64,000 bases of DNA from Candidatus Levybacteria bacterium RIFCSPHIGHO2_01_FULL_40_16 (GCA_001783805.1 MFNS01000006.1:34095-98094); one strand, 5' to 3'; shown: positions 12,047 to 59,542, numbered from the stretch's first letter. Notes: generated by a model not told the origin, from the letters alone. Made by a program: numbers and translations.

Positions 12047-12081
12047 TTGCACATTATACCATCGGATGTTATAATACCAAA

Positions 12082-43706: not shown

Positions 43707-43713
43707 AATATGT

Positions 43714-44967
43714 ATGTTTTTTTCAAAGAAAAAAATAATATTTATACTTTTTCTTCTTAGCCTATTAGTTCTTTCTAAATACTTCTCAATAATTGTTTAT
43801 GCCGCGGATTGTGATGATAAGAATGGTCAAGAAAAAGTTGACTGCCTACAGAATAAAGTAAATGATCTTAAGGGTCAAGCCAAAACACTTTCGTCCCAAA
43901 TTTCCATAATGGATAGTCAAATTAGATTAACAGAGGCAAGAATAGAGACAAACAAAAGGCAAATACTCGATTTAACACTAGACATTGATACGACAACGAA
44001 AAAAATTTCCTCTCTCCAGGACTCTTTAAATAAAATTACGGAAGTATTGCTAAATAGAATTGTTGCAACATATCAGGCAGGGAGAGTTCAGCCGTTTGAA
44101 ATGCTTTTATCCTCTCGGGACGCTTCCAATTTGCTGGCGAGACTAAATTATTTAAGGATTGCACAAAACCATGATAAAAGACTTATCTACGATGTCCAGC
44201 AAGCAAAAAATGACTACACAAATCAAAAAGATATTTACGAGGCAAAGAAGAAAAAAGTAGAGAATCTCAAAAAACAACTCGAAGCATATACTGTTCAATT
44301 AAATCAGGAAAAAGTAAATAAGCAAGATTTGCTTAGTCAAACAAGGGGAAGTGAGGCGACATATCAATCCCTTTTGGCGCAAGCCAGAGCTCAGTTGGCC
44401 GCCTTTTCTAATTTTGCAACTTCTACCTTTGGAACATCATTGGTTCCCCATAAAGAATTGTCTGATGAATACGGTAAATATTATAATCAAAGGGATAGTC
44501 AATGGGGCAATTTATTAGTCAATAATGATAGCAGCAATTGTAGGGGTGGTCCCTGTACCTTAGCTAGAATTGGTTGTCTGATAACTTCTTATGCGATGGT
44601 GGCTTCTCGTTTTGGAAGCTCAATAAATCCCGCAGACGTAGCGGTAAACTCCAGTAACTTTTGGGGCGGTAGCGCTGATTTTATGAAGCCGGGTCCCTCG
44701 GCAAATGGGCATGCGGTAAGTTATGTAGCTGATCCATCCATACAGCAGTTAAGAGACGCATTAAGCTCTGGTGCAGCTGTAATTGCTGGTTTATCAATCA
44801 ATGGCGGTCCATCCTCAACTCATTATTCTGATCACTGGGTTGTTTTAAGGTCGGTTGATGGTGAAAGCTTTAAGATAAATGATCCTGCTTATCAAGACGC
44901 AATGAACGTTTCCTTGAATGACCATTATTCTAGCTGGACAATAATTGAAGCAAGAATTTATAGATAA
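43714..44967 (+). CDS. PcsB/EnvC-like coiled-coil protein with C-terminal papain-like (C39/CHAP-like) cysteine peptidase domain
   Basis: Signal/TM, about 200-aa coiled coil, C-terminal Cys (CTLARIGC) ... His (HYSDHWVVL); directly after ftsEX. Confidence 0.5.
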   Translation: MFFSKKKIIFILFLLSLLVLSKYFSIIVYAADCDDKNGQEKVDCLQNKVNDLKGQAKTLSSQISIMDSQIRLTEARIETNKRQILDLTLDIDTTTKKISSLQDSLNKITEVLLNRIVATYQAGRVQPFEMLLSSRDASNLLARLNYLRIAQNHDKRLIYDVQQAKNDYTNQKDIYEAKKKKVENLKKQLEAYTVQLNQEKVNKQDLLSQTRGSEATYQSLLAQARAQLAAFSNFATSTFGTSLVPHKELSDEYGKYYNQRDSQWGNLLVNNDSSNCRGGPCTLARIGCLITSYAMVASRFGSSINPADVAVNSSNFWGGSADFMKPGPSANGHAVSYVADPSIQQLRDALSSGAAVIAGLSINGGPSSTHYSDHWVVLRSVDGESFKINDPAYQDAMNVSLNDHYSSWTIIEARIYR

Positions 44968-44974
44968 ATATTAA

Positions 44975-45847
44975 ATGAGAGCAATAATTGTCCTTATTGC
45001 GGTTTTATTTCTTCTGCATTTTGCGAATCCTGTTTCTGCAGCAACTTTTACCTTCGAAGGATCTCTGGCAGAGATCCATGATGATGAATCTTTTACTATC
45101 AATGTTTTACTTTCTATAGCCAGTTCGAAGGGAAAAAGCTATTACATTCGACCTGGATTCTTCCAGCCAGAAAAAACTCCACGTTCTTATTTCGGCTATA
45201 TCAAAGATAATGCAGGTGATTGGGCTAACGGGGGATCACCGATAGATAAAACACAGTTTTATAAAATTACTATGAATGACAATAACGAATGGGTAGGCAG
45301 CCTTATTATAAAGGCTGATCTAGAGGCTTCCGGATTCAATGGATCGGGAAATTACAATTTTATAATTGGTAGGTATACAGAATCCGGGAGCACAGTAAAT
45401 TGGTGCGATGGCGATTCCACTCCATGTTCCACTTCCATTATTACAATTAATCAAGCACCAACGCCTACGTCTACCCCGACGCCTGTTCCAATAAATATTC
45501 CTACTTCAACGCCAACCCCTACGCCAACTCCAACATCTTTGCCGGCGCCGACGAAAACGCCAACGCCTACTCCAAGCCGTACACCTACGCCTATTTTAAG
45601 ATCCTCGTTATCGCCTGCGCCAGAAGAAGTTTTGGGAGAAAGTACGGAAACTGGGGAAATTGTTTCCGCTACTGACACAGAATCTTCTAATGAAGACGCA
45701 CTGGCTTCAAATAAATCCAAAAGCACAAATAACAATTGGTTTCAAAAATTTTTCATTTGGATTGGCGGAATTCTTTTAATTGCTTGTGCTATACTATCTT
45801 TTCGAGTTTATATTAAAAATAAAAAACCGGATTCCGAAACAATATGA
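44975..45847 (+). CDS. secreted protein with Pro/Thr-rich linker and C-terminal TM anchor
   Basis: Signal peptide; APTPTSTPTPVP...TPTPTPS low-complexity linker; C-terminal hydrophobic anchor. Confidence 0.45.
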   Translation: MRAIIVLIAVLFLLHFANPVSAATFTFEGSLAEIHDDESFTINVLLSIASSKGKSYYIRPGFFQPEKTPRSYFGYIKDNAGDWANGGSPIDKTQFYKITMNDNNEWVGSLIIKADLEASGFNGSGNYNFIIGRYTESGSTVNWCDGDSTPCSTSIITINQAPTPTSTPTPVPINIPTSTPTPTPTPTSLPAPTKTPTPTPSRTPTPILRSSLSPAPEEVLGESTETGEIVSATDTESSNEDALASNKSKSTNNNWFQKFFIWIGGILLIACAILSFRVYIKNKKPDSETI

Positions 45848-46323
45848 AAATTAAAGAAAAAGTTTTTGTTACAAATAATTTCGAAGAGACACAAAAACTA
45901 GGAGAGAATTTTGCAAGGTCTCTCCTTGCAAGTCCGCAAGGAGAGACCTCAAATGTGATTACTCTCTATGGGGAGTTGGGAAGCGGCAAAACAACTTTTG
46001 TTCAGGGGTTAGCGGCTGGCCTTGGAATTAAGAACAGAATTATTTCCCCTACATTCATAATAGTCAGAAGCTATAAATTAAGGATTAAGGATAAAGGATT
46101 AATGATAAATGACTTTTATCATATAGATTTGTATAGGGTGGAGAGCGAGAGGGATCTTGAGGGTTTAGGGATTGAAGAAATTGTAAATAATAAAAATAAT
46201 ATTGTGGTAATTGAGTGGGCGGAAAAATTAAAAAAATACTTGCCTCAAAAAAGAATAGACATAAAATTTTCATATGAAAAAGACAACATAAGAAAAATTA
46301 TGTTTGGATCTTCAAATCAATAA
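45844..46323 (+). CDS. tsaE: tRNA threonylcarbamoyladenosine biosynthesis protein TsaE
   Basis: LYGELGSGKTTFVQG P-loop, SPTFII, HIDLYR; contains heptamer-encoded insert KLRIKDKGLM. Confidence 0.75.
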   Translation: MKIKEKVFVTNNFEETQKLGENFARSLLASPQGETSNVITLYGELGSGKTTFVQGLAAGLGIKNRIISPTFIIVRSYKLRIKDKGLMINDFYHIDLYRVESERDLEGLGIEEIVNNKNNIVVIEWAEKLKKYLPQKRIDIKFSYEKDNIRKIMFGSSNQ

Positions 46324-46379
46324 GCATCGTTTGACAATTGCCTTACTTGTGTGGTATATATTGTCCACTGCCTCACAAG

Positions 46380-46577
46380 ATGAATTACAATATCCAGACA
46401 AATTTTTTCAATGTTAAAGAAGTTTCAGTATTTTTAAAATTAAGCGCACTAACAGTTTACAAATATATCTCGGAGAAAAAAATTAAAGCAATACAGTTTG
46501 GCGGACGTTACCTTATCGATAAATCCTCACTTAATAAATTTGTGAAAGAGAGAAAATTAAGTAAATCCAGCACCTGA
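46380..46577 (+). CDS. helix-turn-helix (excisionase/MerR-like HTH_17) DNA-binding protein
   Basis: VKEVSVFLKLSALTVYKYISEKKIKAIQFGGRYLI pattern; start may be 46338. Confidence 0.45.
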   Translation: MNYNIQTNFFNVKEVSVFLKLSALTVYKYISEKKIKAIQFGGRYLIDKSSLNKFVKERKLSKSST

Positions 46578-46594
46578 TTGGTGACGGATAAAAC
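46562..46594. repeat. hairpin element family B copy 2 (degenerate: ATCCAGCACC-tgatt-GGTGACGGAT), overlaps HTH stop, upstream of tsaC
   Basis: Shares TAAATCCAGCACC and GGATAAAAC with copy at 38115..38150. Confidence 0.5.
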
Positions 46595-46627
46595 CTCTTG
46601 GAACCTTCTAATTGATATAATTACAAT

Positions 46628-47206
46628 ATGGATAAGGTTAAAAAAGCAATTGAAGTTTTAAGGCAGGGCGGAATAGTTATTTTTCCAACAGATACGGCTA
46701 TCGGCATTGGCTGCAGAGTAGATGATAAAAAAGCAGTAGAAAGATTATTTAAAATCCGCAAAAGACCTGAAAATAAACCAATGTTAATATTGGTTAATTC
46801 GATTGAGATGGCTCAAGATTATTTATTACCAATTTCTCAAGAAATTAAGAATAAGCTGATTAAACGCTATTGGCCGGGAAAGCTTACAATTATTCTGCAA
46901 AGCAAAATTGATAAGGTGCCAAATTTGGTAAGAGGCGGAACAAATACTCTTGGCGTTAGATTTCCCGATAGTAAAAATTTGTTAAAATTAATTAGCGGAG
47001 TGGGCGTACCAGTTGTTGCGCCATCTGCAAATTTTGCAGGCGAGAAAACACCGTTTAGATTTGAAGATCTAAATCCAAAACTTATAAAACAAGCGGATTA
47101 TGTTTTAAATGAAGAAATAAGTTTGGAAAAAAATGTTTCAACTATAATTGATTGTACGGTTACGCCCTGGAAGGTTATCAGAGAAGGAGCGGTAAAGATA
47201 AATTAA
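46628..47206 (+). CDS. tsaC: L-threonylcarbamoyladenylate synthase (YrdC/Sua5 domain)
   Basis: YrdC motifs (FPTDTAIGIG, VRGGTNTLGVRFP, PSANFAG). Confidence 0.8.
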   Translation: MDKVKKAIEVLRQGGIVIFPTDTAIGIGCRVDDKKAVERLFKIRKRPENKPMLILVNSIEMAQDYLLPISQEIKNKLIKRYWPGKLTIILQSKIDKVPNLVRGGTNTLGVRFPDSKNLLKLISGVGVPVVAPSANFAGEKTPFRFEDLNPKLIKQADYVLNEEISLEKNVSTIIDCTVTPWKVIREGAVKIN

Positions 47207-47208
47207 AA

Positions 47209-47565
47209 ATGAAAAATGAAAAATTAAAAATTATTTTGGTACTAGATACTGCAGATAGTCAAGAAATTACAGTAGGTTTGATTATTGATGGCCGGAAAGA
47301 CATTCAAACCAAAAAGGTTATTTTCAATAAGACACAAATTATCCTGCCAATGGTTGATAAGATTCTAAAAAAACATTTATTAGCGCCAAAAGATTTATCG
47401 GAAATTCAAATTAACCTCGGGCCGGGATCATTCACAGGCTTACGGATTGGTCTTGCCATTGCCAATGCTTTGTCTTTTGTTCTCAAAGTTCCGGTTAATG
47501 GAAAAAAAGCCGGAGAAATAATTTTGCCAATATATTCCTCCTCCGCGAAAAGCAAACAGCATTAG
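47209..47565 (+). CDS. tsaB: TsaB (YeaZ)-like protein, N-terminal domain only (short form)
   Basis: ILVLDTA ... GPGSFTGLRIGLAIANAL; only about 119 aa from ATG at 47209. Confidence 0.55.
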   Translation: MKNEKLKIILVLDTADSQEITVGLIIDGRKDIQTKKVIFNKTQIILPMVDKILKKHLLAPKDLSEIQINLGPGSFTGLRIGLAIANALSFVLKVPVNGKKAGEIILPIYSSSAKSKQH

Positions 47566-48791: not shown

Positions 48792-49520
48792 ATGAAAGGT
48801 GTTGTTTTGGCGGGGGGTCTTGGCACAAGACTCTATCCCTTAACCCATGTAACTAATAAGCATCTGCTTCCAGTTTATAATAAGCCAATGATTTTCTATC
48901 CTATTCAGACTCTGGTGAATGCAGGAATAACGGAAATCTTAATTGTTACTTCAGGACCTCATGTTGGTGATTTTCTGGGAGTGCTTAAAAATGGAAAGGA
49001 TTTAGGGGTAACACATTTGGAATATGCTTATCAGGAAAAACCGGATGGCGGAATTGCGGACGCGCTTTCTCTGGCAGAGGCTTTTGCGGATGGAGATTCG
49101 ATTACGGTTATTTTGGGAGATAACACTACGGATGCAGATATTTCACAGGCGGCTAGAAGATTTAAGGATGGAGCAGTTGTTTTTCTTAAAAAAGTTCCGG
49201 ACCCAAAGCGTTTCGGAGTACCCCTATTTGATCCTAAAAATCCAAAAAATATAATCAAAATTGAGGAAAAACCAAAAGAGCCTAAATCTGATTATGCCGT
49301 TACAGGTATCTATATTTACGATAATAAAGTTTTTGAGTACGTTAGGAAATGCGATCCGAATTTTGCCGGAAGAGGAGAATTAGAGATTACAGAGGTAAAT
49401 AATTACTATATTAACGAAAAAAAACTCAGATGGGAAGAGCTAAATGGATATTGGAGCGATGCCGGAACTTTTGATAGTCTTTTTAAATCCAGCAGTTATT
49501 GGGCCACCCAAAAAAAATGA
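48792..49520 (+). CDS. rmlA: glucose-1-phosphate thymidylyltransferase (short form)
   Basis: MKGVVLAGGLGTRLYPLT nucleotide-binding motif; RmlA-like. Confidence 0.8.
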   Translation: MKGVVLAGGLGTRLYPLTHVTNKHLLPVYNKPMIFYPIQTLVNAGITEILIVTSGPHVGDFLGVLKNGKDLGVTHLEYAYQEKPDGGIADALSLAEAFADGDSITVILGDNTTDADISQAARRFKDGAVVFLKKVPDPKRFGVPLFDPKNPKNIIKIEEKPKEPKSDYAVTGIYIYDNKVFEYVRKCDPNFAGRGELEITEVNNYYINEKKLRWEELNGYWSDAGTFDSLFKSSSYWATQKK

Positions 49521-50059
49521 GCCAATGGAAAATTATTTCTCAAAAATCCATACTTAAAGCGAAACTTTTTGACGTTAAACAAATAGATTTTGAAAATAAA
49601 TCTGGAAAGAAAAAGACGCATCGTGTGGCGGAAAGAGTTCCAATTGTTTCAGTTTTTCCCCTGACCGACTCATACGAAATTTATTTGCTTTCCGAATATA
49701 GATACATGCTGAAGAAAACAATTATAGAAGCTGTAGCTGGGCATATGGAAAAAAAAGAAACTACAATTGCCGCAGCAAAAAGAGAACTAAAAGAAGAGGC
49801 AGGCATAGAGGCTCAACAGTTGGAAGAAATAGCCAGAATTGAAATGTCGGGCAGCGTTTTTAAGAGTAAAGTCCACCTTTTTTTGGCAAAAGGATTGGAA
49901 ATAGGAGATAATAAACCTGATGATGACGAAGAGATATCTGTTATTAAAATGCCTTTAGCGCTGGCCGTAGAAAAAGTTATGTCGGGAGAAATTAATCATG
50001 CCTCAAGCGTGATAGGTATATTAATGCTTGATAATTTAAGAAGAGAGAAAAAATTATAA
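49517..50059 (+). CDS. Nudix hydrolase
   Basis: Perfect Nudix box GHMEKKETTIAAAKRELKEEAGI; embedded between rmlA and rmlB. Confidence 0.7.
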   Translation: MSQWKIISQKSILKAKLFDVKQIDFENKSGKKKTHRVAERVPIVSVFPLTDSYEIYLLSEYRYMLKKTIIEAVAGHMEKKETTIAAAKRELKEEAGIEAQQLEEIARIEMSGSVFKSKVHLFLAKGLEIGDNKPDDDEEISVIKMPLALAVEKVMSGEINHASSVIGILMLDNLRREKKL

Positions 50060-50061
50060 TT

Positions 50062-51075
50062 ATGAAACTTCTAGTTACGGGTGGAGCAGGATTTATAGGA
50101 TCCAATTTTATTCTTTATTGGATGAAGAATTATCCGCAAGATAGAATTGTTAATTTGGATAATCTTACTTACGCGGGGAATTTGGAAAATCTTAAAGAAG
50201 TTGAGAAGAATCCCAACTATAAATTCATTCATGGAAACATTTGCAATTTAAATATTGTAGGCGAGGCAATGAGGGGTATAGATACGGTTGTGCATTTTGC
50301 TGCAGAAAGCCATGTCGATAGGTCAATCCTGAAGCCATCCGATTTTATTGTGACAAATGTTGTTGGCACCCAAGTCTTGTTGGATAGCGCCTTGAAGCAT
50401 AAGGTGAAGCGTTTTCACCATATTTCTACAGATGAAGTTTATGGAAGCCTTAAACTTAATGATCAGAGTAAATTTAATGAACGAACAAATTATAATCCCA
50501 ATAGTCCATATTCGGCAAGTAAAGCCGGGTCAGATCATTTAGTTAAAGCGTATAGCGAAACTTATGGTCTTCCAATTACAATTACTAATTGCTCAAACAA
50601 TTTTGGTCCGTATCAATTCCCGGAAAAATTTATTCCATTGGCAATAACAAATATTTTAGAGGACAAAAAGGTTCCGGTATACGGAGACGGGCTGTATGTA
50701 AGGGATTGGCTCTATGTGATTGATCACTGCAGAGCAATAGATCTAGTTTTAAATAAGGGCAAAGTTGGGGAGACATATTTGGTAGGCGGAATGACGGATG
50801 ACATCTCTAATCTGGAGGTGGTTAAAAAAATTCTGAAGATTATGGGTAAACCGGAAAGCTTTGTAGAGCATGTTAAAGATAGACTCGGACATGACCGTCG
50901 TTATGCGGTTAATTGGTCAAAAATAGAAAAAGAATTAGGCTGGAAACCCCTTCACGATTTTGATGAGTGGCTTGAAAAAACTATTGCTTGGTATAAAGAA
51001 AATGAAAAATGGTGGAAGGATGTAAAATCAGGCGATTACAAAAAATACTATCAAGAGCAATATGGAAAATTATGA
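50062..51075 (+). CDS. rmlB: dTDP-glucose 4,6-dehydratase
   Basis: TGGAGFIGSNF, YSASKAGSD (YxxxK), RmlB-like throughout. Confidence 0.9.
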   Translation: MKLLVTGGAGFIGSNFILYWMKNYPQDRIVNLDNLTYAGNLENLKEVEKNPNYKFIHGNICNLNIVGEAMRGIDTVVHFAAESHVDRSILKPSDFIVTNVVGTQVLLDSALKHKVKRFHHISTDEVYGSLKLNDQSKFNERTNYNPNSPYSASKAGSDHLVKAYSETYGLPITITNCSNNFGPYQFPEKFIPLAITNILEDKKVPVYGDGLYVRDWLYVIDHCRAIDLVLNKGKVGETYLVGGMTDDISNLEVVKKILKIMGKPESFVEHVKDRLGHDRRYAVNWSKIEKELGWKPLHDFDEWLEKTIAWYKENEKWWKDVKSGDYKKYYQEQYGKL

Positions 51076-51938
51076 AAATTTTGGGAACGGGACTAGATGG
51101 GCTTGTTGGGTCAAGAATAATTGAGCTTTTAAGCGGTAAGCATGAGTTTGAGAATCTCAGCCTCAGTACGGGAGCGGACATTACGGATAGGAATGCAATT
51201 CTCCAAAAAATCAAAAACTCGGATGCTCAAATCATGCTTCACTTAGCCGCGAAAACCGATGTTGATGGATGCGAATTGGATAAGCCATTAGGAGAAAAAG
51301 GAGATGCTTGGAAAATTAATGTGTTTGGAACACAAAACGTAGTTGACGGATGTTCGGAGAGTAATAAAAAAATAATTTATATTTCTACGGATTTTGTTTT
51401 TGATGGAACAAAAGAAGCTTATTCGGAAGAAGATGCTCCAAATCCGCTCAGCTGGTACGCCAAAACAAAATATGAGGGAGAAAAAATCGTCCAAACTTCA
51501 AAAATTCCCTGGATCATTGTCCGTATTGCCTCTCCCTATAGGGCAGTATTCAAAAAATTAGATTTTACTCGCGCGATTCTTAAGCGTTTACAAGAAGGAC
51601 TTTCTGTAGTAGCGGTTAAGGATCATATTTTTACTCCGACATTTATTGACGATATTGCCTTGGCAATCGACGTTCTGATTGCAGATAATTTACAGGGCAT
51701 ATTCCATGCCGTTGGGAGTCAGAGCTTAACACCTTTTGCTGCCTCTATTCTGATAGCAAAAGAATTTAGTTTGGATTCATCTAAAATCACTGAAACTAGA
51801 AGAGCTGAGTTTTTTAATAATCGAGCGCCCAGGTCTTTCCAACTGGCGCTGAAAAATGATAAAATACAAAGATTAGGAGTAAAAATGAAGACGTTTGAAG
51901 AAGGACTGAGAGAGATAAAAAAACAAGGGATAATTTGA
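51072..51938 (+). CDS. rmlD: dTDP-4-dehydrorhamnose reductase-like (RmlD family)
   Basis: ATGA overlap with rmlB; LGTGLDGLVGSRI Rossmann motif, YAKTKYEGE (YxxxK). Confidence 0.7.
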   Translation: MKILGTGLDGLVGSRIIELLSGKHEFENLSLSTGADITDRNAILQKIKNSDAQIMLHLAAKTDVDGCELDKPLGEKGDAWKINVFGTQNVVDGCSESNKKIIYISTDFVFDGTKEAYSEEDAPNPLSWYAKTKYEGEKIVQTSKIPWIIVRIASPYRAVFKKLDFTRAILKRLQEGLSVVAVKDHIFTPTFIDDIALAIDVLIADNLQGIFHAVGSQSLTPFAASILIAKEFSLDSSKITETRRAEFFNNRAPRSFQLALKNDKIQRLGVKMKTFEEGLREIKKQGII

Positions 51939-52034: not shown

Positions 52035-53327
52035 ATGACAATAACTTTTGTAGGACATGGGTATGTAGGTTTGGTAACCGCTTCTGTTTTTGCAGATCTC
52101 GGCAACACAGTTTGGGTTATCGGACATACCAAAGAAAAGATTGAAAATCTCAAAAAAGGCATATTACCCATTTATGAACCGGGACTTGAAGAAATTGTCA
52201 GAAGGAATGTTAAAGCAAAAAGACTATTGTTTACTCTGGATTATAAAGAATCTGTTCCAAATTCAGATGCTGTTTTTATAACAGTTGGTACCCCTCCAAA
52301 ACCGACAGGCGAAGCTGATTTGTCGATTGTTTTTGAAGTCGCCAAGAAAATCGGAGAGAATCTGGATGGATATACCGTGGTCGTAACAAAAAGTACGGTA
52401 CCGGTTGGAACAAATAAAATAATCAATGAAATAATTGCTGCGGCAAAACCCGCAAAAGCAAAGTTTGACATCGCATCTATTCCTGAATTCTTAAGAGAAG
52501 GACAAGCCATATCGGATACGCTTCATCCAGATAGAATTGTAATCGGTACCAATTCCAAGCCCGCAGAGAAATTACTGATTGAACTTCATAAGTCTATCGA
52601 TGGAAGCTATGTATTGACCAATATCGAAACTGCGGAAATGATTAAGTATGCTGCCAACTCATTTCTCGCCACAAAGATTTCTTTTGCGAATGCAATTGCT
52701 CATCTGTCAGAGCTAACCGATGCGGATGGATCAAAAGTTTTAGAGGCAGTGGGGCTTGATAAACGGGTTGGCAGTCAATTCTTGCTTGCGGGAGCAGGAT
52801 ATGGAGGAAGCTGTTTCCCAAAAGATGTAAAAGCCATGATAACAATTGCAAAAAGATCAGGATACGATTTTTCCCTTCTTAAAGCTGTTGAGGAAATTAA
52901 CCAACAGGCAATGCATGGTATAGTTGAAAAAGCAAAGAAGATGTTGGGCGGGAAGGTAAAAGACAAAACGATTGGGATACTTGGCTTATCCTTTAAGCCC
53001 GACACGGACGATATGAGAGATGCTCCTTCAATCTTTATCATAAATAGCCTTCTTAGAGAAGGCGCAAAAATAAAAGCTTATGATCCTATTGCGATGAATA
53101 ACGCAAAAAGAATTCTAAGAAATGTTGATTTTCAACCTGATTCTTATTCTGTTGCCCAAGATTGCGACATTCTGATTATAATAACCGAATGGAATGAATT
53201 TAGACAACTTGATCTAAGGGAAATAAAAAAGTATATGAGCAAACCTGTCCTTCTGGATGGAAGAAATATTTATGATCCCCGGAAATTAAGAGAAATGGGA
53301 TTTATATATACTGGAGTTGGTCGATGA
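52035..53327 (+). CDS. ugd: UDP-glucose 6-dehydrogenase
   Basis: VGHGYVGL NAD motif, catalytic GGSCFPKDV. Confidence 0.85.
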   Translation: MTITFVGHGYVGLVTASVFADLGNTVWVIGHTKEKIENLKKGILPIYEPGLEEIVRRNVKAKRLLFTLDYKESVPNSDAVFITVGTPPKPTGEADLSIVFEVAKKIGENLDGYTVVVTKSTVPVGTNKIINEIIAAAKPAKAKFDIASIPEFLREGQAISDTLHPDRIVIGTNSKPAEKLLIELHKSIDGSYVLTNIETAEMIKYAANSFLATKISFANAIAHLSELTDADGSKVLEAVGLDKRVGSQFLLAGAGYGGSCFPKDVKAMITIAKRSGYDFSLLKAVEEINQQAMHGIVEKAKKMLGGKVKDKTIGILGLSFKPDTDDMRDAPSIFIINSLLREGAKIKAYDPIAMNNAKRILRNVDFQPDSYSVAQDCDILIIITEWNEFRQLDLREIKKYMSKPVLLDGRNIYDPRKLREMGFIYTGVGR

Positions 53328-54295
53328 ATCCTTCCATGAAAAAAGTTTTAATAACAGGAATTACCGGGTTTGCAGGAAGTTATCTTGCGCAACACCTCCT
53401 CTTGACCAAAAAATATAACATCAGCGGGACTTACCTATTTGGAAAAAGTTTAAGTAACGTTGAATATGCAGAAGGTAAATTAAACCTAATAAAAGCAGAT
53501 TTGTCTGAAGAAAAAAACGTGCTTGATATTATTCAAGATGTTTCTCCGTCAATAATTTTCCATTTAGCCGCACTAACGTCTCCGGCAGACAGTTTTAAAA
53601 ATCCAACGACAGCTATAACCAACAATATCTCCCTACAGGTAAATCTACTGGAGGCAGTAAGAAAGCATAATCTATCCAACACAAAAATTTTGATTGTTTC
53701 ATCGGCAGACATCTACGGACGGGTTGCAAAAAACAATTTACCTATTGACGAAGAAACGCCTTTGATACCAACCAGTCCCTACAGCGTGTCTAAAATAGCG
53801 CAGGATTTTTTAGGTCTTACCTATTTTTTGACCTACAAACTTAAGATAATAAGAGTAAGGCCCTTTAATCATATTGGACCCAGACAATCTCCGAATTTCG
53901 TTGTTTCCGCGTTTGCCAAACAGATAGCTGAAATAGAGAAAGGTATAAGAAGGCCGGTTTTGAAAGTCGGCAATCTTCAAGCAAAAAGAGATTTTACGGA
54001 CGTAAGAGATATGGTTAATGCATACATTTTAGCTGTTGAGAAGGGGGAAGATGGAGAAGTTTATAATATAGGATCGGGTATCTCTTATAAAATATCTGAT
54101 ATTTTGAATAAATTAATTTCCATGTCTTCTTCTAAGATAAAGATAGAAAAAGACGAAACTTTATTTAGACCAAGCGATAATCCTGATCTGGTATGTAATG
54201 CTGGTAAATTTATTAGCCTTACAGGCTGGAAACCTCAAGTTCCTATCGAAACGACTCTCAAGGAAACTCTGGACTATTGGAGAAATATAATTTAA
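53324..54295 (+). CDS. GDP-4-dehydro-6-deoxy-D-mannose reductase-like (Rmd / GMD-family SDR)
   Basis: ITGITGFAGSYL, YSVSK (YxxxK), PFNHIGPRQ; adjacent to gmd. Confidence 0.5.
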   Translation: MNPSMKKVLITGITGFAGSYLAQHLLLTKKYNISGTYLFGKSLSNVEYAEGKLNLIKADLSEEKNVLDIIQDVSPSIIFHLAALTSPADSFKNPTTAITNNISLQVNLLEAVRKHNLSNTKILIVSSADIYGRVAKNNLPIDEETPLIPTSPYSVSKIAQDFLGLTYFLTYKLKIIRVRPFNHIGPRQSPNFVVSAFAKQIAEIEKGIRRPVLKVGNLQAKRDFTDVRDMVNAYILAVEKGEDGEVYNIGSGISYKISDILNKLISMSSSKIKIEKDETLFRPSDNPDLVCNAGKFISLTGWKPQVPIETTLKETLDYWRNII

Positions 54296-54313
54296 AATTA
54301 AATAGGTACTTTT

Positions 54314-55279
54314 ATGAAGAAAGCTTTAATAACAGGAATTACGGGACAAGACGCATCATACCTTGCGGAATTTCTGCTTACAAAAGGATATAAAGTTTTT
54401 GGAACAACAAGAAGATCCAGCACGGTTAACAATGAGAGAATAGAACATATCCAGGATAAAATTACTATTTTACAAGGAGACTTGTTGGATCAGGGGTCGT
54501 TGTCTTCAGCGCTTTTGGAGTCTGAACCTGACGAAGTTTATAATTTAGCAGCTCAATCTTTTGTTCAGACATCTTGGAATCAGCCTGTTTTGACTGGAGA
54601 ATTTACCGCTTTGGGAGTGACCAGGTTGCTTGAGGCAATCAGAACTGTAAATCCCAAAATAAAATTCTATCAAGCATCCAGTTCGGAAATGTTTGGTAAA
54701 GTAACGGAGACTCCGCAGAAAGAAACGACAAGATTCCATCCAAGAAGTCCTTACGGTGTGGCCAAAGTTTACGGCCATTACATAACGATGAATTATCGAG
54801 AAAGTTTTGGTATTTTTGCCTGTTCGGGTATGATGTTTAATCATGAATCTCCCCGCAGGGGTTTGGAATTTGTGACCAGAAAGATAAGCCATGCAGTTGC
54901 GAGAATAAGCCTTAAAAAGCAGGAGCATCTTGAACTTGGAGCGCTGGAGCCAAAGAGAGATTGGGGATTTGCAGGTGATTATGTTGAGGCGATGTGGCTC
55001 ATGCTTCAGCAAGAGAAAGCAGATGATTATGTAGTAGCAATGGGAGAAAATCACAGCGTTAGGGAATTTTTGGATTTGGCTTTTAAAACAGTTGGAATTT
55101 CGGATTGGAGTAAGTATGTTGTCTCCAATAAAACGTCTCACATGCGGCCTGCAGAAGTTGACTATTTAATAGGGGATGCGAGCAAAGCCAAAAAAGTATT
55201 GGGATGGAAACCGAAAACAAGCTTCAAAGAACTGGTTGAAATGATGGTTAAAGCCGATTTGGTGCTGGAGAAGAAGTAG
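54314..55279 (+). CDS. gmd: GDP-mannose 4,6-dehydratase
   Basis: [38 protein letters not shown]: near-canonical GMD. Confidence 0.85.
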
Positions 55280-55337
55280 AAATAAATCCCGCACCAACCC
55301 CATCGTTTAGTTCCAAGACAAGATTTAATATAAAATT

Positions 55338-56312
55338 ATGGATAAATCAAGAAAAAGAGTATTGGTAGCAGGTGGTGCGGGATTTATTGGTTCGCATTTA
55401 TGCAAAAGTTTATTAGACGGGAATTACAAAGTAATCGCAATAGACAATCTTCTGACAAGTACTAAAGATAATTTAAAAGATCTTCTAAAAAATCCTGAAT
55501 TCACATTTTTAGAGCATGATGTTACCGACCAAATTTCAAATTTCAAATTTCAAATTTCAAATTTGGACTATATCTTCCACTTGGCAAGTCCTGCATCCCC
55601 AAATCAAAAAAGCGCAAGGAGTTACATAAATCATCCAATAGAAACTTTACTTGCAAATTCACTTGGAACATATAATCTTTTGGAATTAACCCGTCAATTT
55701 AACGCTAAATTTTTATATGCTTCTTCATCCGAAGTTTACGGAGATCCCGCAATATCTCCTCAAAAGGAAGATTATTTTGGTAGTGTAAATCCAAATGGAA
55801 TAAGATCTGTGTATGATGAGGGAAAAAGATTTGGAGAAGCAATTACATCTGGGTACGTACGGAAATATGGTTTGGATGCTCGCATAATTCGTATTTTTAA
55901 CACTTACGGACCAATAATGCTGGCTGATGATGGAAGGGTGGTGTCTAATTTCATTAACCAGGCAATAGAAAATAAGCCGATTACAGTTTATGGAAAAGGT
56001 ACTCAAACAAGAAGTCTTTGCTATGTTGATGATATGGTTTCCGGAATAAAACTGGCAATGCTGACTCCGAATACCAAGGGAGAAGTTTTTAATTTAGGTA
56101 ATCCGGATGAGCGAAGCATTCTAGATATTGCAAAGCTTATTAAGAGTCTGACCAATTCAAAATCAAAAATTGTTTTTGAAGATTTGCCTATCGATGATCC
56201 AAAATCCAGAAAGCCTGATATCGCCAAAGCAAAAAGAATTTTAGGGTGGGAACCAAAAGTCTCAACAGAGAGAGGCTTACGAAAAACCATAGATTATTTT
56301 AGAAACATATGA
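55338..56312 (+). CDS. UDP-glucuronate decarboxylase (UDP-xylose synthase, UXS/ArnA-decarboxylase-like SDR)
   Basis: GGAGFIGSHL, HLASPASP, YDEGKR (YxxxK), RIFNTYGP; carries heptamer-encoded insert ISNFKFQISN. Confidence 0.7.
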   Translation: MDKSRKRVLVAGGAGFIGSHLCKSLLDGNYKVIAIDNLLTSTKDNLKDLLKNPEFTFLEHDVTDQISNFKFQISNLDYIFHLASPASPNQKSARSYINHPIETLLANSLGTYNLLELTRQFNAKFLYASSSEVYGDPAISPQKEDYFGSVNPNGIRSVYDEGKRFGEAITSGYVRKYGLDARIIRIFNTYGPIMLADDGRVVSNFINQAIENKPITVYGKGTQTRSLCYVDDMVSGIKLAMLTPNTKGEVFNLGNPDERSILDIAKLIKSLTNSKSKIVFEDLPIDDPKSRKPDIAKAKRILGWEPKVSTERGLRKTIDYFRNI

Positions 56313-57436
56313 AAATAGTGATCATCCCCGCAACTTACAATGAAAAAGGCAATATTGAACGATTGATTACGATTCTCGAAACAGAAGTTTTTCCAAAGCT
56401 CAAGAATCACGATATGTATATTTTGGTGGCTGATGACAATTCTCCGGATGGGACCGCGGATGAAGTAAAAAAGTTGATGAAAAAATGGGCGAATATCGGT
56501 ATCTCAAGTGGCATAAGGAATGGATTGGGAGCAGCCTACATTAGGGGGATGACGTATGCGGTTGAAAAATTAGGCGCCGATGTAATGTTTGAAATAGATG
56601 CGGACTTACAGCATGATCCACACAAAATTCCTGAATTTATTAAAAAAATTGAACAAGGATACGATATGGTTATAGGAAATCGGTACAGTGATGGCGGTTC
56701 GATTCCTGAGAATTGGCCTCTGATTCGAAAAATATTTTCAATTGCTGCCAATCTTTTTGTCAGAACTGTCTTTACGAAATTTTCCGTGCATGATTGGACA
56801 GGCGGATATAGGGCTTTAAAAAAGGAGGTTTTTCTTAAGGAGAAACCTAGGCTTACTAATTTCAGGGGATACATATTCCAAATTTCTTTTTTGCATAAAG
56901 CCGTAAGAGACGGATTCAAAATTGGAGAAGTTCCATTTCATTTTAGCGATAGGACTTTGGGCAGTTCCAAAATTGCCCCCTTAGGGTACATACTAGATGT
57001 AGTTGAATATGTGGTTATTTCAAGAATTAAGGAGTTGATTTTTGGAAAATTCGGAAAATTTTTAGTGGTTGGAGGATTGGGATTTGTTATAAATGCCGGT
57101 TTGTACGAGGCGTTGGTAAGGAATACCAATCTTCCTCTTGCGGTTTCTAATTTGATAGCCGCCCAATTTGCAATCTTTTCAAATTTTAACTTCAACAACG
57201 CATGGACATTTAAAACCCAAAAGGCAAACAGCATCTTTTCCTACTTCAGGAAAATGATAGGTTTTTTTACAACATCAAATATAGGAGTGATCCTTATCCA
57301 ATCGGGAATAATTCAGCTTGGAGATGTATTATATGGTGAAAAATATTACAGAATTTATTTTCTCATTGGAACATTTTTTCTCTTAATTTGGAATTTTACA
57401 ATGTATAGTAAGATCATTTGGAAAAAGAAGACCTAA
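56309..57436 (+). CDS. polyprenyl-phosphate glycosyltransferase, GT2 (DPM1/ArnC-like) fused to GtrA-like C-terminal domain
   Basis: N-terminal GT2 (VIIPATYNE, DDNSPDGT, DADLQHDP); C-terminal 4-TM GtrA-like. Confidence 0.7.
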   Translation: MKIVIIPATYNEKGNIERLITILETEVFPKLKNHDMYILVADDNSPDGTADEVKKLMKKWANIGISSGIRNGLGAAYIRGMTYAVEKLGADVMFEIDADLQHDPHKIPEFIKKIEQGYDMVIGNRYSDGGSIPENWPLIRKIFSIAANLFVRTVFTKFSVHDWTGGYRALKKEVFLKEKPRLTNFRGYIFQISFLHKAVRDGFKIGEVPFHFSDRTLGSSKIAPLGYILDVVEYVVISRIKELIFGKFGKFLVVGGLGFVINAGLYEALVRNTNLPLAVSNLIAAQFAIFSNFNFNNAWTFKTQKANSIFSYFRKMIGFFTTSNIGVILIQSGIIQLGDVLYGEKYYRIYFLIGTFFLLIWNFTMYSKIIWKKKT

Positions 57437-57461
57437 GGCCTCAATCTTAATTCAAAATAAT

Positions 57462-59015
57462 ATGTTTTTACGAATTTGGAAATTATTAACAAATAATAAA
57501 GTTGTATTTTTTTTCATACTTATTCTTGCTGCGTTTTTAAGACTTTATAAAATTGATGATTACATGACTTTTCTTGGAGATGAGGGGAGAGACGTTCTTA
57601 TTGTAAAGGGTATTTTGGAAGGACATTTTACTCTCTTAGGGCCTAGGGCTTCGGCTGCAGATTTCTTTACGGGACCTATCTATTATTATTTTATGGCACC
57701 ATTTTTGTGGTTATTTAATTTAGATCCGGTAGGTCCGGCTGTTGGAATTGCCCTTTTAGGAATAGCAACGGCATATCTGGTTTATCGTATCGGTAAATAT
57801 TTTTTTGGGGCACCAGCCGGGCTTTTTGCAGCAGCACTTTATGCAGTATCTCCAGTGGTCATTAGCTATTCACGTTCCTCTTGGAATCCAAATCCAATGC
57901 CGTTTTTCTCGTTGTTGATACTCTTTTTTCTATACAGATCAATTATGGATAAGTCATGGAAAATATTATTTTTTACGGGACTCCTTTTTGGCATTGCAAT
58001 GCAACTGCATTATATAGAGGTGTTTTTGGGGATTACGATTTTTCTCTTTATAATAATCTCAACCTATATATTGGAAAATAAAAAAAGAATAAAGATATGC
58101 GCCATGCGTTATGCGGAGTTTTTATTAGGATTTCTAATTGGTTTTTCTCCATTTCTTGCATTTGAGATTCGTCATGGGTTTCCAAATACTAAGACGATAT
58201 TAAATTTTATTTTTCATCAGGATCTTTACATTAAAGAGGTAGTTCGTACATCACCTATGCAAATTGTAGGGGATGTTTTTTTTAGATTGTTTGCGCGCTT
58301 ACTTACAAACTATCCTCCGCTAGATCGGCTGCATGATGGGACATTGATATTTACGTTGTGGCAACTAGGGGTAGTTATATTAGCGGTTGCGTCAATAATC
58401 GCACTGCTTAGGATAAAAAACAAAATTGCTTTATTATTATTTTCCTTATGGCTTTTTATCGGAGTATTAAGTTTCGGATTCTATAAAAAACCTATTTATG
58501 ATTATTATTTTGAATTCATGTTTCCATTGCCTTTTTTATTGATTGGAAATTTGTTTCACCAGCTTTATAAAAGCGAAAGAATGCATATCTACGGTAAAAT
58601 TATCTCGATTGGTTTATTCACGACTCTATTTTTATATAATTTATACTGGATGCCTTTTAAATTTGCCCCAAACAAACAAAAAGATCAGGTAAAATCAATT
58701 GCTGAATTTGTAGTTTCTAAAACAAATAGTAAGCCTTTTAATTTTGCTTTAATTGCCGCGCAAAATTCCGATCATGCTTATCGTTATTTCTTTAATGTTT
58801 GGAAGAGAGATCCAATTACGATAGAAAATGAGATTGTGGATCCGAAGAGGAAGACGGTTGCCAATCAGCTGCTGGTCATTTGCGAAGATAGGAATTGTGC
58901 ACCGCTAGGAAATTCTCTTTGGGAAATAGCAGGATTCGGCCGGGCAGAAATTGCTCAAGAATGGAATATCTCCGTTGTCAAAGTATTCAAACTTGTCCAT
59001 TATGAGGGAGTTTAA
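57462..59015 (+). CDS. GT-C glycosyltransferase, family 39/83 (ArnT/PMT-like)
   Basis: Multi-TM; N-terminal DEGRD-containing loop typical of ArnT/PMT GT-C enzymes. Confidence 0.6.
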   Translation: MFLRIWKLLTNNKVVFFFILILAAFLRLYKIDDYMTFLGDEGRDVLIVKGILEGHFTLLGPRASAADFFTGPIYYYFMAPFLWLFNLDPVGPAVGIALLGIATAYLVYRIGKYFFGAPAGLFAAALYAVSPVVISYSRSSWNPNPMPFFSLLILFFLYRSIMDKSWKILFFTGLLFGIAMQLHYIEVFLGITIFLFIIISTYILENKKRIKICAMRYAEFLLGFLIGFSPFLAFEIRHGFPNTKTILNFIFHQDLYIKEVVRTSPMQIVGDVFFRLFARLLTNYPPLDRLHDGTLIFTLWQLGVVILAVASIIALLRIKNKIALLLFSLWLFIGVLSFGFYKKPIYDYYFEFMFPLPFLLIGNLFHQLYKSERMHIYGKIISIGLFTTLFLYNLYWMPFKFAPNKQKDQVKSIAEFVVSKTNSKPFNFALIAAQNSDHAYRYFFNVWKRDPITIENEIVDPKRKTVANQLLVICEDRNCAPLGNSLWEIAGFGRAEIAQEWNISVVKVFKLVHYEGV

Positions 59016-59110: not shown

Positions 59111-59254
59111 TTAGGCTTTTCCAATTCTGTACATTCCTGTTCCACAAACTGGGCATTTGCCTTTCATTGCCGGTTTACCGTTTTTCATTGTAACTGCTTG
59201 AGCGCTTGGGTCTTCTCTCTTCGCTCTGCATTTTACGCAGTACATTGATGCCAT
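59111..59254 (-). CDS. small zinc-ribbon protein (47 aa; CxxC...CxxC), not in ORF track
   Basis: MASMYCVKCRAKREDPSAQAVTMKNGKPAMKGKCPVCGTGMYRIGKA; strong SD GGGAGGTG 7 nt upstream; terminator downstream. Confidence 0.5.
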   Translation of the reverse strand: MASMYCVKCRAKREDPSAQAVTMKNGKPAMKGKCPVCGTGMYRIGKA

Positions 59255-59278
59255 ATTTATTTTCACCTCCCTTCCTAG

Positions 59279-59542
59279 CTAATAATTTAAATTTGGTATT
59301 GAAAGAATGTGTCTTTTAAGAAGAAAGAAGAGAATAATCTGTGCCGCAATGATAGAGCAAGTTAATATTCCTGTCTTCGAAACGTCTTTTAAGACGTGCG
59401 TATTGAAATAAGAATTTTCATTAATTGAAATAGCGAGGGGAGAATTATTGGGAGGCGTATTCTTATTTTTGAAAATATAAACCTGATGACGATAATCTGC
59501 AATAATTTTTTCTTTACGGGTCTTTTTGTGCTTATGCTTCAT
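59279..59542 (-). CDS. hypothetical protein (basic N-terminus, C-terminal TM)
   Basis: ORF only; immediately upstream of zinc-ribbon gene. Confidence 0.25.
   Translation of the reverse strand: MKHKHKKTRKEKIIADYRHQVYIFKNKNTPPNNSPLAISINENSYFNTHVLKDVSKTGILTCSIIAAQIILFFLLKRHILSIPNLNY

Follow-up and report, generated by a model that had tools for sequence, protein, structure and literature searches.

A sugar-nucleotide supply cluster beside a GT-C enzyme and a likely polyprenyl-phosphate mannose (possibly D-rhamnose) synthase in a Candidatus Levybacteria genome

The actinobacterial synthase Ppm1 is DPM1-like and feeds lipid-linked mannose to GT-C enzymes acting outside the membrane (Pmt, MptA, and MptB); Ppm1 and MptA/B use polyprenyl-phosphate mannose. 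The ArnA/ArnC/ArnT pathway starts from Ugd-made UDP-GlcA and likewise employs a GT2 polyprenyl-phosphate transferase, ArnC. In the three-component systems GtrB/GtrA/GtrC, CsdA/CflA/CsdB, and CsbB/GtcA/YfhO, a GT-A enzyme makes the C55-P-sugar, a GtrA-family protein flips it, and a GT-C enzyme transfers the sugar outside (PMC9574508); in these systems the GT-A gene lies next to that of the GT-C, the component that varies most. The type-III DPMS of Pyrococcus furiosus (PfDPMS; PDB 5mlz, 5mm0, 5mm1, and 9ep0), whose carrier is dolichol, combines a GT2 domain, interface helices, and a four-helix GtrA-like domain, and its residues binding GDP-Man and Dol-P have been assigned (PMC5526996). Strict type-III DPMS enzymes, which are found only in hyperthermophilic archaea, display 89-DADxQHPP-96 (x = L, F, or Y), R117 (SRY), R131, S135, and K178 (KIL); their membrane domain carries N248 and N277 in a polar pocket and F338 as a gate, and a crystallographic study has proposed that the GtrA-like domain of DPMS can flip the product (PMC12992685). 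For a pentose carried on a lipid, the closest systems described are the GT136 pentofuranose systems of Citrobacter youngae O antigens, in which a GT-C and a flippase work with a lipid-linked pentose donor to add side chains extracytoplasmically (PMC11127046).

The window analyzed here, i.e., the whole 64-kb stretch of DNA, comes from an uncultured Candidatus Levybacteria bacterium. It contains a co-directional sugar block that starts at 48792 with four genes (rmlA-like, NudE-like Nudix, rmlB, and rmlD-like) and ends at 59015, the final part of which (52035-59015) comprises six plus-strand ORFs. The features are:

11354-12109, minus strand: uppS, undecaprenyl-diphosphate synthase, carrier-lipid supply (Pfam Prenyltransf, 8.7e-71)
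44975-45847, plus strand: secreted protein, anchored in the membrane at its C terminus and containing a long Pro/Thr-rich linker (from its translation)
48792-49520, plus strand: rmlA-like glucose-1-phosphate thymidylyltransferase, short at 242 aa (Pfam NTP_transferase, 9e-53)
49499-50059, plus strand: NudE-like Nudix hydrolase (Pfam NUDIX)
50062-51075, plus strand: rmlB, dTDP-glucose 4,6-dehydratase (TIGR01181, 480 bits against a cutoff of 365)
51009-51938, plus strand: rmlD-like dTDP-4-dehydro-6-deoxyhexose reductase (Pfam RmlD_sub_bind, 4e-53)
52035-53327, plus strand: ugd, UDP-glucose 6-dehydrogenase (three UDPG_MGDP_dh domains)
53324-54295, plus strand: rmd-like GDP-4-keto-6-deoxy-D-mannose reductase of the SDR type (best PDB match 2pk3)
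54314-55279, plus strand: gmd, GDP-mannose 4,6-dehydratase (TIGR01472)
55338-56312, plus strand: uxs, UDP-glucuronate decarboxylase (UDP-xylose synthase; human UXS1, 4gll)
56309-57436, plus strand: DPM1/DPMS-like polyprenyl-phosphate GT2 fused to a GtrA-like four-helix membrane domain (Pfam GT2 and GtrA_DPMS_TM)
57462-59015, plus strand: GT-C fold glycosyltransferase of an uncharacterized PMT_2-type family

The identities that the sequence-only reading had given to the six co-directional genes are borne out by the ORF check and by domain and family matches; its prose was loose as to their order, which is ugd, rmd, gmd, uxs, GT2-GtrA, and GT-C.

The GT2-GtrA protein shows the features of the polyprenyl-phosphate GT2 class, viz., a GT-A fold, a DAD motif, interface helices, and membrane helices. 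Its best solved relative by sequence is PfDPMS (5mlz; 135 bits, 2.8e-38, residues 1-316, compared with 40 bits for ArnC and 38 for GtrB), with the alignment continuing from the GT2 into the GtrA-like membrane domain at 28% identity across both. Foldseek likewise places PfDPMS on top (E ~1e-18 versus 5e-13 and 1e-11 for ArnC and GtrB), the best 25 matches all being PfDPMS, ArnC, or GtrB. The motif reads DADLQH, as opposed to DADLQN in ArnC and DADLQD in GtrB, and the protein retains G68-L69, which stacks on guanine, where ArnC has G-Q. Of the two likenesses that the sequence-only reading had named (ArnC/DPM1-like), the enzyme thus shows that to DPM1/DPMS, not to ArnC; the ArnC family model NF007986 yields 39 bits against a cutoff of 529. 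Besides G68-L69, the residues assigned in PfDPMS (PMC5526996) that are kept in the window protein include E12, D38/D39, D89-A-D91-L-Q93-H94, R117, R131, S135, R202, and K208. Nearly all of them persist in 78 orthologs (R117, R131, and S135 in 78/78), the exceptions being Q93 (Q in 49/78) and H94 (72/78). N248 and N277 correspond to N262 and N292, of which N292 is invariant and N262 lies outside the columns listed as at least 90% conserved, in an alignment that stops short of the gate residue F338. The window protein departs from strict type-III DPMS (PMC12992685) at three motif positions, with DADLQHDP for DADxQHPP (seven of eight positions), NRY for SRY, and Ile (IFQ) for K178 of KIL; among the orthologs x and Q of the first motif vary. 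The position of K178, which in PfDPMS contacts mannose O4/O6 and the phosphoester oxygen, is Thr, Ile, or Ala in the orthologs, and R117, the second O6/O4 contact, is invariant. The ligand of the conserved R117, R131, and S135 is the acceptor phosphate rather than the sugar, and sequence is an unreliable guide to donor specificity in GT2 polyprenyl-phosphate transferases. As the window protein is bacterial, its carrier is presumably of the undecaprenyl type.

The GT2 and GT-C genes sit side by side in 78 of 79 Levybacteria loci and also in all seven of the less closely related Microgenomates loci. Relatives that are more remote still have this GT-C fused to a GT2: such GT2::GT-C fusions account for seven of eight tested relatives with an N-terminal extension of ~225-250 residues. 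The pairwise identities of GT2 and GT-C co-vary with r = 0.60. The adjacency and the fusions uphold the earlier notion of a lipid-carrier scheme, in which the GT2 loads polyprenyl phosphate and the GT-C transfers the sugar outside. The three functions of the three-component systems, i.e., synthase, GtrA-like protein, and GT-C, are accordingly found linked in two adjacent genes, with the same logic; however, the synthase and GtrA-like domain are fused in the window, the synthase is DPM1-type and probably uses a GDP-sugar, unlike the UDP-sugar type GtrB/CsbB, and the GT-C belongs to a distinct family.

We think it reasonably probable that the locus pairs a sugar-nucleotide supply cluster with a module made up of a GT-C and a synthase that loads mannose, possibly D-rhamnose, onto polyprenyl phosphate. 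We propose that this two-gene, three-function module at the 3' end of the block would mediate glycosylation outside the membrane. The GT2 domain would transfer a sugar at the cytoplasmic face from a nucleotide sugar, most likely a GDP-sugar (GDP-mannose in the first place, GDP-D-rhamnose in the second), to polyprenyl phosphate, for which UppS, encoded in the same window, could supply the carrier lipid. The fused GtrA-like four-helix domain would then hold, and possibly flip, the lipid-linked sugar, and the GT-C would transfer it to an acceptor outside the membrane via the acidic D40-E41 of its first external loop. This would amount to a surface-glycosylation system of an ordinary kind in an unusual organism.

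The uxs gene lies directly 5' of the GT2 gene with a 4-bp overlap, and its product is a genuine UXS: it matches human UXS1 (4gll) at 8.9e-95 and 320 bits, versus 150 bits for the next non-UXS structure, 125-141 for GalE-type enzymes, and 85-89 for ArnA. Its motifs GGAGFIGSH, SSEVYGDP, YDEGKR, and GTQTRS align with ASTSEVYGDP, YDEGKR, and GSQTRA of hUXS1, and it has the GxxGxxG NAD site, the S/T-Y-K residues with the adjacent Glu, and the Arg of QTR, whose roles are presumably those of their hUXS1 counterparts. The grouping with UDP-glucose 4-epimerases (GalE), which the sequence-only reading had named as refuting its proposal, was thus not observed; the ArnA C-terminal decarboxylase was rejected (NF005998, 105 bits against a cutoff of 777), the formyltransferase domain being absent. 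A real UXS invites the reading proposed earlier, namely an Arn-like pathway dispensing with ArnA and ArnB, in which Ugd and UXS make UDP-Xyl, the GT2-GtrA protein loads the polyprenyl phosphate, and the GT-C transfers xylose or a derived pentose. The loss of the K178 contact to O4/O6 in favor of small or hydrophobic residues could suit a sugar without C6, and UXS adjoins GT2 in 64 of 71 Levybacteria loci. However, the block as a whole keeps its synteny, housekeeping genes included, which makes adjacency within Levybacteria weak evidence, and little can be read into an overlap of 4 bp when ugd and rmd, from different pathways, overlap identically. Further, seven of the 71 Levybacteria loci have no UXS but show GT2 active-site motifs of the same range, and UXS is missing too from six of the seven other Microgenomates loci that keep the GT2/GT-C pair; these counts pertain to the locus, and UXS could be encoded elsewhere in those genomes, one of which is complete (OZ246394.1). 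UXS is thus dispensable at the locus, its identities co-vary poorly with those of the GT2 (r = 0.28), and the GT2 is far nearer to the GDP-Man enzyme than to ArnC. We therefore regard a lipid-linked pentose as quite improbable. The window has no ArnA, ArnB, or ArnD, and ArnT is undetectable by sequence. Relative to the GT136 systems, in which the donor derives from PRPP via a polyprenyl phosphoribose synthase and a MATE flippase is used, the window is without such genes and its GT2 is a nucleotide-sugar enzyme. Given the position of UXS abutting GT2, a recruitment of UDP-Xyl within Levybacteria is possible, but the sugar that the GT2/GT-C pair brings to the cell surface is most likely mannose or a near relative of it, not xylose.

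Among close relatives of mannose, D-rhamnose is 6-deoxy-D-mannose, and a DPMS-type GDP-sugar site could therefore accept it. Gmd and the Rmd-like reductase would then make GDP-D-Rha, the GT2 polyprenyl-phosphate D-rhamnose, and the GT-C would transfer D-rhamnose. Four of the seven non-Levybacteria loci (L083, L087, L088, and L089) have the order Ugd-Rmd-Gmd-GT2GtrA-GT-C with the gmd stop overlapping the GT2 start by 4 bp, the UXS-less Levybacteria loci share the Rmd-Gmd-GT2GtrA-GT-C arrangement, and the K178 contact is not conserved. Against this, the other O6/O4 contact, R117, is invariant, and the pair is kept in loci lacking rmd (L005 and L055) or gmd (L030). Moreover, L084 and L086 lack all four sugar-nucleotide genes, gmd and rmd included, but retain GT2(+GtrA) and GT-C, which fits a primary donor such as GDP-Man. 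We know of no polyprenyl-phosphate D-rhamnose donor described as such, and consider this reading unlikely. The favored donor, GDP-mannose, is implied to be made by the cell from the presence of gmd; no mannose-1-phosphate guanylyltransferase was seen within the 64-kb window.

The GT-C has ~13 TM helices, the multi-helix membrane fold of solved GT-C enzymes, and a C-terminal α/β domain with a conserved Cys pair. The acidic residues D40-E41 (FLGDEGRD), just past TM1 in the first external loop, are invariant in 67/67 aligned homologs; the lack of such a motif would have undermined the sequence-only reading. Its closest folds are ALG12 and ArnT. In Pfam it matches PMT_2 alone, with no match to MptA_B or, even at E <= 10, to PF02366 (PMT), and a PDB search with the family profile retrieves no chain at E <= 1, hence neither PMT nor ArnT. 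Assignment to GT39 PMT was rejected on these grounds, the D-E motif notwithstanding, as was that to GT83 ArnT. Relative to the actinobacterial enzymes, the GT-C has the D-E motif as in GT39, and MptA_B-family genes occur beside the pair in sister Microgenomates loci, but it matches neither of those families and the phylum differs (Patescibacteria). In sister lineages the GT2/GT-C pair is followed by a second GT2, an MptA_B-family gene, and more PMT_2, YfhO, and PTPS-related GT-C-type genes. Because the same pair thus stands at the head of multi-GT-C clusters, which point to glycopolymer assembly, we favor a cell-wall glycopolymer or lipoglycan as the acceptor.

A Pro/Thr-rich surface protein is a possible acceptor too. 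The candidate suggested earlier, encoded at 44975-45847, 12 kb upstream, is indeed unique among the ORFs of the window in having 25 successive residues with at least 60% P+T; its product has no Pfam match, and its gene lies outside the co-directional sugar block, which leaves it a speculative candidate. It would be a possible substrate were the GT-C a PMT-like protein O-glycosyltransferase modifying Ser/Thr in such linkers. The invariance of D40-E41 is consistent with this, as GT39 enzymes require the D-E motif of the first external loop (PMC11727336), and some fused relatives of the GT-C match PF02366 as well. Nevertheless, with the window enzyme itself matching only PMT_2, its nearest folds serving glycan and lipid acceptors, and the sister clusters indicating glycopolymer assembly, a protein O-glycosyltransferase appears doubtful.

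In the supply block, the rmlA-like, rmlB, and rmlD-like genes are predicted to yield a dTDP-6-deoxyhexose, ugd to yield UDP-GlcA, uxs to yield UDP-Xyl, and gmd with the rmd-like gene to yield GDP-D-rhamnose. Most of these products are probably used by glycosyltransferases of the cytoplasm whose genes lie in other parts of the genome. Ugd (TIGR03026, 450 bits versus a cutoff of 190; TuaD-like, 531 bits) and Gmd (TIGR01472 equivalog, 424 versus 415) exceed their cutoffs. The Rmd-like SDR reaches no curated NCBIfam equivalog model in the family-model search; its best solved relative is 2pk3, a GDP-6-deoxy-D-lyxo-4-hexulose reductase (8.6e-71, 242 bits), while a heptose 4,6-dehydratase (7us5) scores 180 bits and Rmd (6x3b, 8e-50) 173 bits. 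The rmlA-like (TIGR01207, 231 bits, cutoff 361), rmlD-like (TIGR01214, 172 bits, cutoff 224), and Nudix (NF008736 NudE, 90 bits) products fall below theirs. The rmlD-like match begins at residue 23, and DNA homology to relatives begins at 51072, near which its real start probably lies. In place of the NudE-like gene some relatives carry a cupin of the FdtA or RmlC type (FdtA in L081, dTDP_sugar_isom in L083). Two small convergent ORFs lie 3' of 59015.

In this window of a Candidatus Levybacteria genome (Microgenomates, Patescibacteria), the island comprises six ORFs, all of which lie on the + strand at exactly the coordinates that the sequence-only reading had assigned to them:

52035-53327, +: ugd, first in order
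53324-54295, +: rmd-like SDR gene, second
54314-55279, +: gmd, third
55338-56312, +: uxs (UDP-xylose synthase), fourth
56309-57436, +: GT2 fused to the four-helix GtrA_DPMS_TM domain, fifth
57462-59015, +: GT-C membrane transferase (Pfam PMT_2), last

They belong to a co-directional sugar block that opens at 48792 with an rmlA-like gene, continues with a NudE-like Nudix gene, rmlB, and an rmlD-like gene, and ends at 59015, after which come two small convergent ORFs. A Pfam scan of 46 ORFs of the window (a set without many of the short ORFs outside the island) detected no further glycosyltransferase. A gene for carrier-lipid synthesis, uppS, is found at 11354-12109. Promoter and terminator sites between 47000 and 61500 are no more numerous than in shuffled sequence, and hence yield no operon boundaries; the sole Rfam match in the window is a tRNA outside the island. 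In the public record, the UXS is a ‘NAD-dependent dehydratase’ and the rmd-like, GT2-GtrA, and GT-C products are each a ‘hypothetical protein’; OGH24389.1 and related entries are 100% identical to the GT2-GtrA protein.

The best solved relative of the GT2-GtrA protein by sequence is the dolichyl-phosphate mannose synthase (DPMS) of Pyrococcus furiosus (PfDPMS, PDB 5mlz; E=2.8e-38, 135 bits), with the match covering residues 1-316 inclusive of the membrane domain. The same search gave 40 bits for ArnC, on which score an ArnC-like identity was rejected, and 38 bits for GtrB. The predicted structure (pLDDT 81) ranks the folds in the same order, viz., PfDPMS (E~1e-18, 28% identity), ArnC (~5e-13), and GtrB (~1e-11). 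In PfDPMS, guanine is contacted by D39, G68, and L69, the metal and diphosphate by D91 and Q93, the mannose O2/O3 by D89 and H94, O6/O4 by R117 and K178, and the lipid phosphate by R117, R131, and S135, while R202 and K208 belong to the gating loop (PMC5526996). All these residues are kept in the window GT2 save K178, which is replaced by Ile, and most are kept in 78/78 Levybacteria orthologs; Q93 varies (Q in 49/78), and H94 is kept in 72/78. The window GT2 also shares with DPMS the DADLQH motif, as against DADLQD in GtrB and DADLQN in ArnC, and a G-L where ArnC has G-Q. The strict definition of type-III DPMS calls for DADxQHPP, SRY, KIL, N248, N277, and F338 (PMC12992685); in the aligned part, which ends short of F338, N248 and N277 align with N262 and N292, of which N292 is invariant among the orthologs and N262 is not among the columns conserved at >= 90%, but the first three motifs are represented by DADLQHDP, NRY, and IFQ, and for this reason the protein is best called a bacterial DPM1/type-III-DPMS-like enzyme rather than a strict member. 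Enzymes closely related in architecture to the archaeal type-III DPMS thus occur in bacteria.

On these grounds, we assign the GT2-GtrA protein as a putative polyprenyl-phosphate mannose-type synthase. The GtrA-like domain has been proposed as a possible flippase of the product (PMC12992685), and the fused protein may accordingly flip what it makes. In described three-component systems the synthase (GT-A), the flippase (GtrA), and the transferase (GT-C) act in turn (PMC9574508); the logic is the same here, except that synthase and GtrA are fused in one protein. The lipid-carrier scheme for the GT2-GtrA/GT-C pair is well supported.

Among the sugar-nucleotide enzymes, the product of uxs matches human UXS1 with 320 bits (8.9e-95) in a comparison with solved structures, where the best of the non-UXS structures reaches 150 bits, epimerases of the GalE type 125-141, and ArnA 85-89. 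Its alignment retains GGAGFIGSH, SSEVYGDP, YDEGKR, and QTR. These scores and motifs bear out the earlier identification of this SDR as a UXS and dispose of both a GalE-type epimerase and an ArnA-type decarboxylase. The gmd product scores 424 bits, above the equivalog cutoff of 415, and the closest relative of the rmd-like protein is the Aneurinibacillus GDP-6-deoxy-D-lyxo-4-hexulose reductase (2pk3, 8.6e-71).

We compared 80 related loci from species-representative Levybacteria genomes (L001-L080), with each ORF named after the window protein that it matched best by BLASTP. Their conserved order is CAP, a small DUF5656-like ORF, RmlA, (Nudix), RmlB, RmlD, Ugd, Rmd, Gmd, and UXS, followed by GT2GtrA, GT-C, DUF4446, DUF3048, a hypothetical gene, and SecD. 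As this order includes housekeeping genes, it is largely inherited and constitutes weak functional evidence. In 78/79 loci, GT-C lies next to GT2. Upstream sequence suffices for judging UXS in 71 loci: it adjoins GT2 in 64 and is cleanly missing from 7, in most of which Gmd lies beside GT2 instead; loci with and without UXS show the same GT2 motif variants. Pairwise identities co-vary between GT2 and GT-C (r = 0.60) and between DUF3048 and GT-C (0.67), only weakly between UXS and GT2 (r = 0.28), and poorly even between the sugar-nucleotide genes Ugd and Gmd (r = 0.05).

Beyond the Levybacteria, a second search, seeded with a 41%-identical representative, recovered seven contexts from other Microgenomates lineages (L083-L089; SDRs typed by BLASTP), one of which, carrying a protein listed at NCBI under Candidatus Curtissbacteria, is probably of that lineage. 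Four of these (L083, L087, L088, L089) show the order Ugd-Rmd-Gmd-GT2GtrA-GT-C without UXS, with a 4-bp overlap of the gmd stop and GT2 start, and L085 has Ugd-UXS-Rmd-like-GT2GtrA-GT-C. The remaining two combine a DPM1-like GT2, GtrA (separate in L084, fused in L086), and GT-C, and lack Ugd, UXS, Gmd, and Rmd. Thus, the GT2(+GtrA)+GT-C core occurs in 7/7, Gmd in 4/7, and UXS in 1/7 of the non-Levybacteria loci; the pair is a conserved Microgenomates feature. UXS looks like a Levybacteria-lineage insertion into the interval between gmd and GT2. Independent ‘Rosetta stone’ evidence that the GT-C family acts with a GT2 comes from distant relatives found among 1.84 billion cluster representatives: of eight tested with an N-terminal extension of ~225-250 residues (about 710-740 aa long, with 31-44% identity in the matching part), seven (P0287, P0295, P0315, P0321, P0323, P0354, and P0388) fuse a GT2 to a GT-C of the FLGDEGRD type. 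Their GT2, 28% identical to that of the window, is of another Pren-P-GT-like type (Pren-P, polyprenyl phosphate), with a DSDGQ motif and no GtrA domain. Such a fusion would unite the cytoplasmic synthase of the lipid-linked sugar with the extracytoplasmic transferase in one chain.

These observations uphold the components and the lipid-carrier logic of the sequence-only reading, which had likened the island to the Arn pathway with a pentose as the carried sugar. The pentose itself is not supported, given the DPMS-like GT2 and the absence of UXS from 7/71 Levybacteria and 6/7 other loci. In weighing donors, we use our own estimates, which need not sum to unity and in which ‘another sugar’ is no scored rival. 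The DPMS-type site, the persistence of the module without any other island gene, and gmd, which indicates that GDP-mannose is made, together give GDP-mannose about an even chance of being the donor. GDP-D-rhamnose, to which the conserved Rmd-Gmd-GT2 arrangement points, would be an unlikely though credible donor, and UDP-xylose an improbable one; other sugars take the remainder. That the module carries one of the rarer island sugars and not mannose, i.e., polyprenyl-phosphate D-rhamnose or polyprenyl-phosphate xylose, we regard as a tentative proposition. Were the sugar xylose, the Levybacteria-specific uxs insertion between gmd and GT2 would mark a donor switch. We know of no polyprenyl-phosphate donor for D-rhamnose described biologically, and our literature search returned no paper with terms for lipid-linked xylose; if real, either product would count as a new lipid-linked donor of a sugar, from a phylum with essentially uncharted envelope chemistry.

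The only Pfam match of the last island protein is PMT_2, with PF02366 absent even at E <= 10; it is a genuine GT-C, yet the proposed GT39/GT83 membership cannot be demonstrated, and we tentatively assign it to a new family. Since a family profile found no chain among PDB sequences, the fold was predicted with AlphaFold from a 67-sequence alignment (pLDDT 90.7, pTM 0.89). Straight after TM1 lies F37-L-G-D40-E41-G-R43-D44, which is invariant in 67/67 homologs and whole in 7 homologs of only 38-43% identity, so that the enzyme does not lack the DE/DD motif whose absence would have spoken against the sequence-only reading. Counted as representatives of 50%-identity clusters, the family comprises 491 proteins at E <= 1e-30 and 2757 at E <= 1e-10. 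A scan of viral contigs retrieved no relatives, and thus gives no hint of phage-borne serotype conversion.

As to the acceptor, the region 3' of GT-C in L083-L089 codes for a second GT2 of ~250 aa, an MptA_B-family protein, 2-4 PMT_2 proteins, YfhO, and a PTPS-related membrane protein, often with an OTCase and a methyltransferase. MptA and MptB are mannosyltransferases that depend on polyprenyl-phosphate mannose. The window lacks such a cluster, with DUF4446, DUF3048, and SecD in the equivalent position. The organization of these multi-GT-C clusters suggests glycopolymer assembly outside the membrane, and by analogy with these sister lineages we favor a wall glycopolymer or lipoglycan as the likely acceptor. 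The D-E motif and the PMT analogy would alternatively fit a possible protein O-glycosylation enzyme, in which case the PT-rich anchored protein encoded at 44975-45847 is a candidate acceptor. Patescibacteria (CPR) are uncultured and, to our knowledge, almost nothing is known of their surface glycans, which probably mediate host attachment and phage recognition; a literature search on Levybacteria/CPR glycosylation returned nothing relevant. The present analysis sets right the hypothesis of a carried pentose, which is attractive but poorly supported, and provides a concrete, testable annotation for a conserved Microgenomates envelope module formerly recorded as ‘hypothetical protein’ genes.

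Certain further features of these loci deserve mention. The loci with the closest flanks to the window (L047, L055, L065, L068; 79-82% protein identity) have GT-Cs that share ~70% mutual identity and only 51-53% with the window GT-C, whose nearest relative (68%) is in L001, although the L001 flanks are only 44-79% identical to the window. Identity to the window correlates between flanks and GT2 (r = +0.60) and not between flanks and GT-C (-0.18). This suggests that the GT-C allele has been replaced; no sharp DNA recombination boundary was found around GT-C, with ~70-78% identity throughout against the closest relatives. Relative to the window copies, RmlA falls into two identity classes (about 45-52% and 70-87%), as does RmlB (about 50% and 70-85%); in nine loci, Gmd lies on the minus strand and is only 45-52% identical, and pairwise identity hardly co-varies among Ugd, Gmd, UXS, and RmlB (r = 0.05-0.24). 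Judged by these identities, the sugar-nucleotide genes of L001-L080 have mosaic histories.

The dTDP-sugar genes at 48792-51938 do not include an RmlC 3,5-epimerase, and the product may therefore be other than L-rhamnose, unless rmlC sits elsewhere. The NudE-like Nudix gene between rmlA and rmlB lies in the region where relatives have a cupin; the cupins there are FdtA (L081) and dTDP_sugar_isom (L083, L087, L088). The longest rmlD ORF (51009-51938) overlaps rmlB by 67 nt, but its family match sets in at residue 23, relatives share DNA homology only from 51072 onward, and its true start is probably ~21 codons 3' of the longest-ORF start. The 588-bp gap 3' of GT-C holds a 51-aa CxxC...CxxC zinc-ribbon ORF (59111-59266, -), in the position that DUF5679 genes occupy in L081 and L082, and an 87-aa ORF with a hydrophobic C-terminus (59279-59542, -). 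At 42083-45847, FtsE, FtsX, and a PcsB-like coiled-coil protein with a C39-like peptidase domain precede the PT-rich ORF, which has a signal peptide, a C-terminal anchor, and no Pfam match; together, these look like a cell-division hydrolase module with a surface partner of unassigned role. Just 5' of the sugar block (45844-47565) are the t6A tRNA-modification genes for TsaE and Sua5/TsaC, with a 137-aa short ORF, possibly TsaB, that partially matches the TsaD family; the full TsaD is encoded at 22027-23157 (-).
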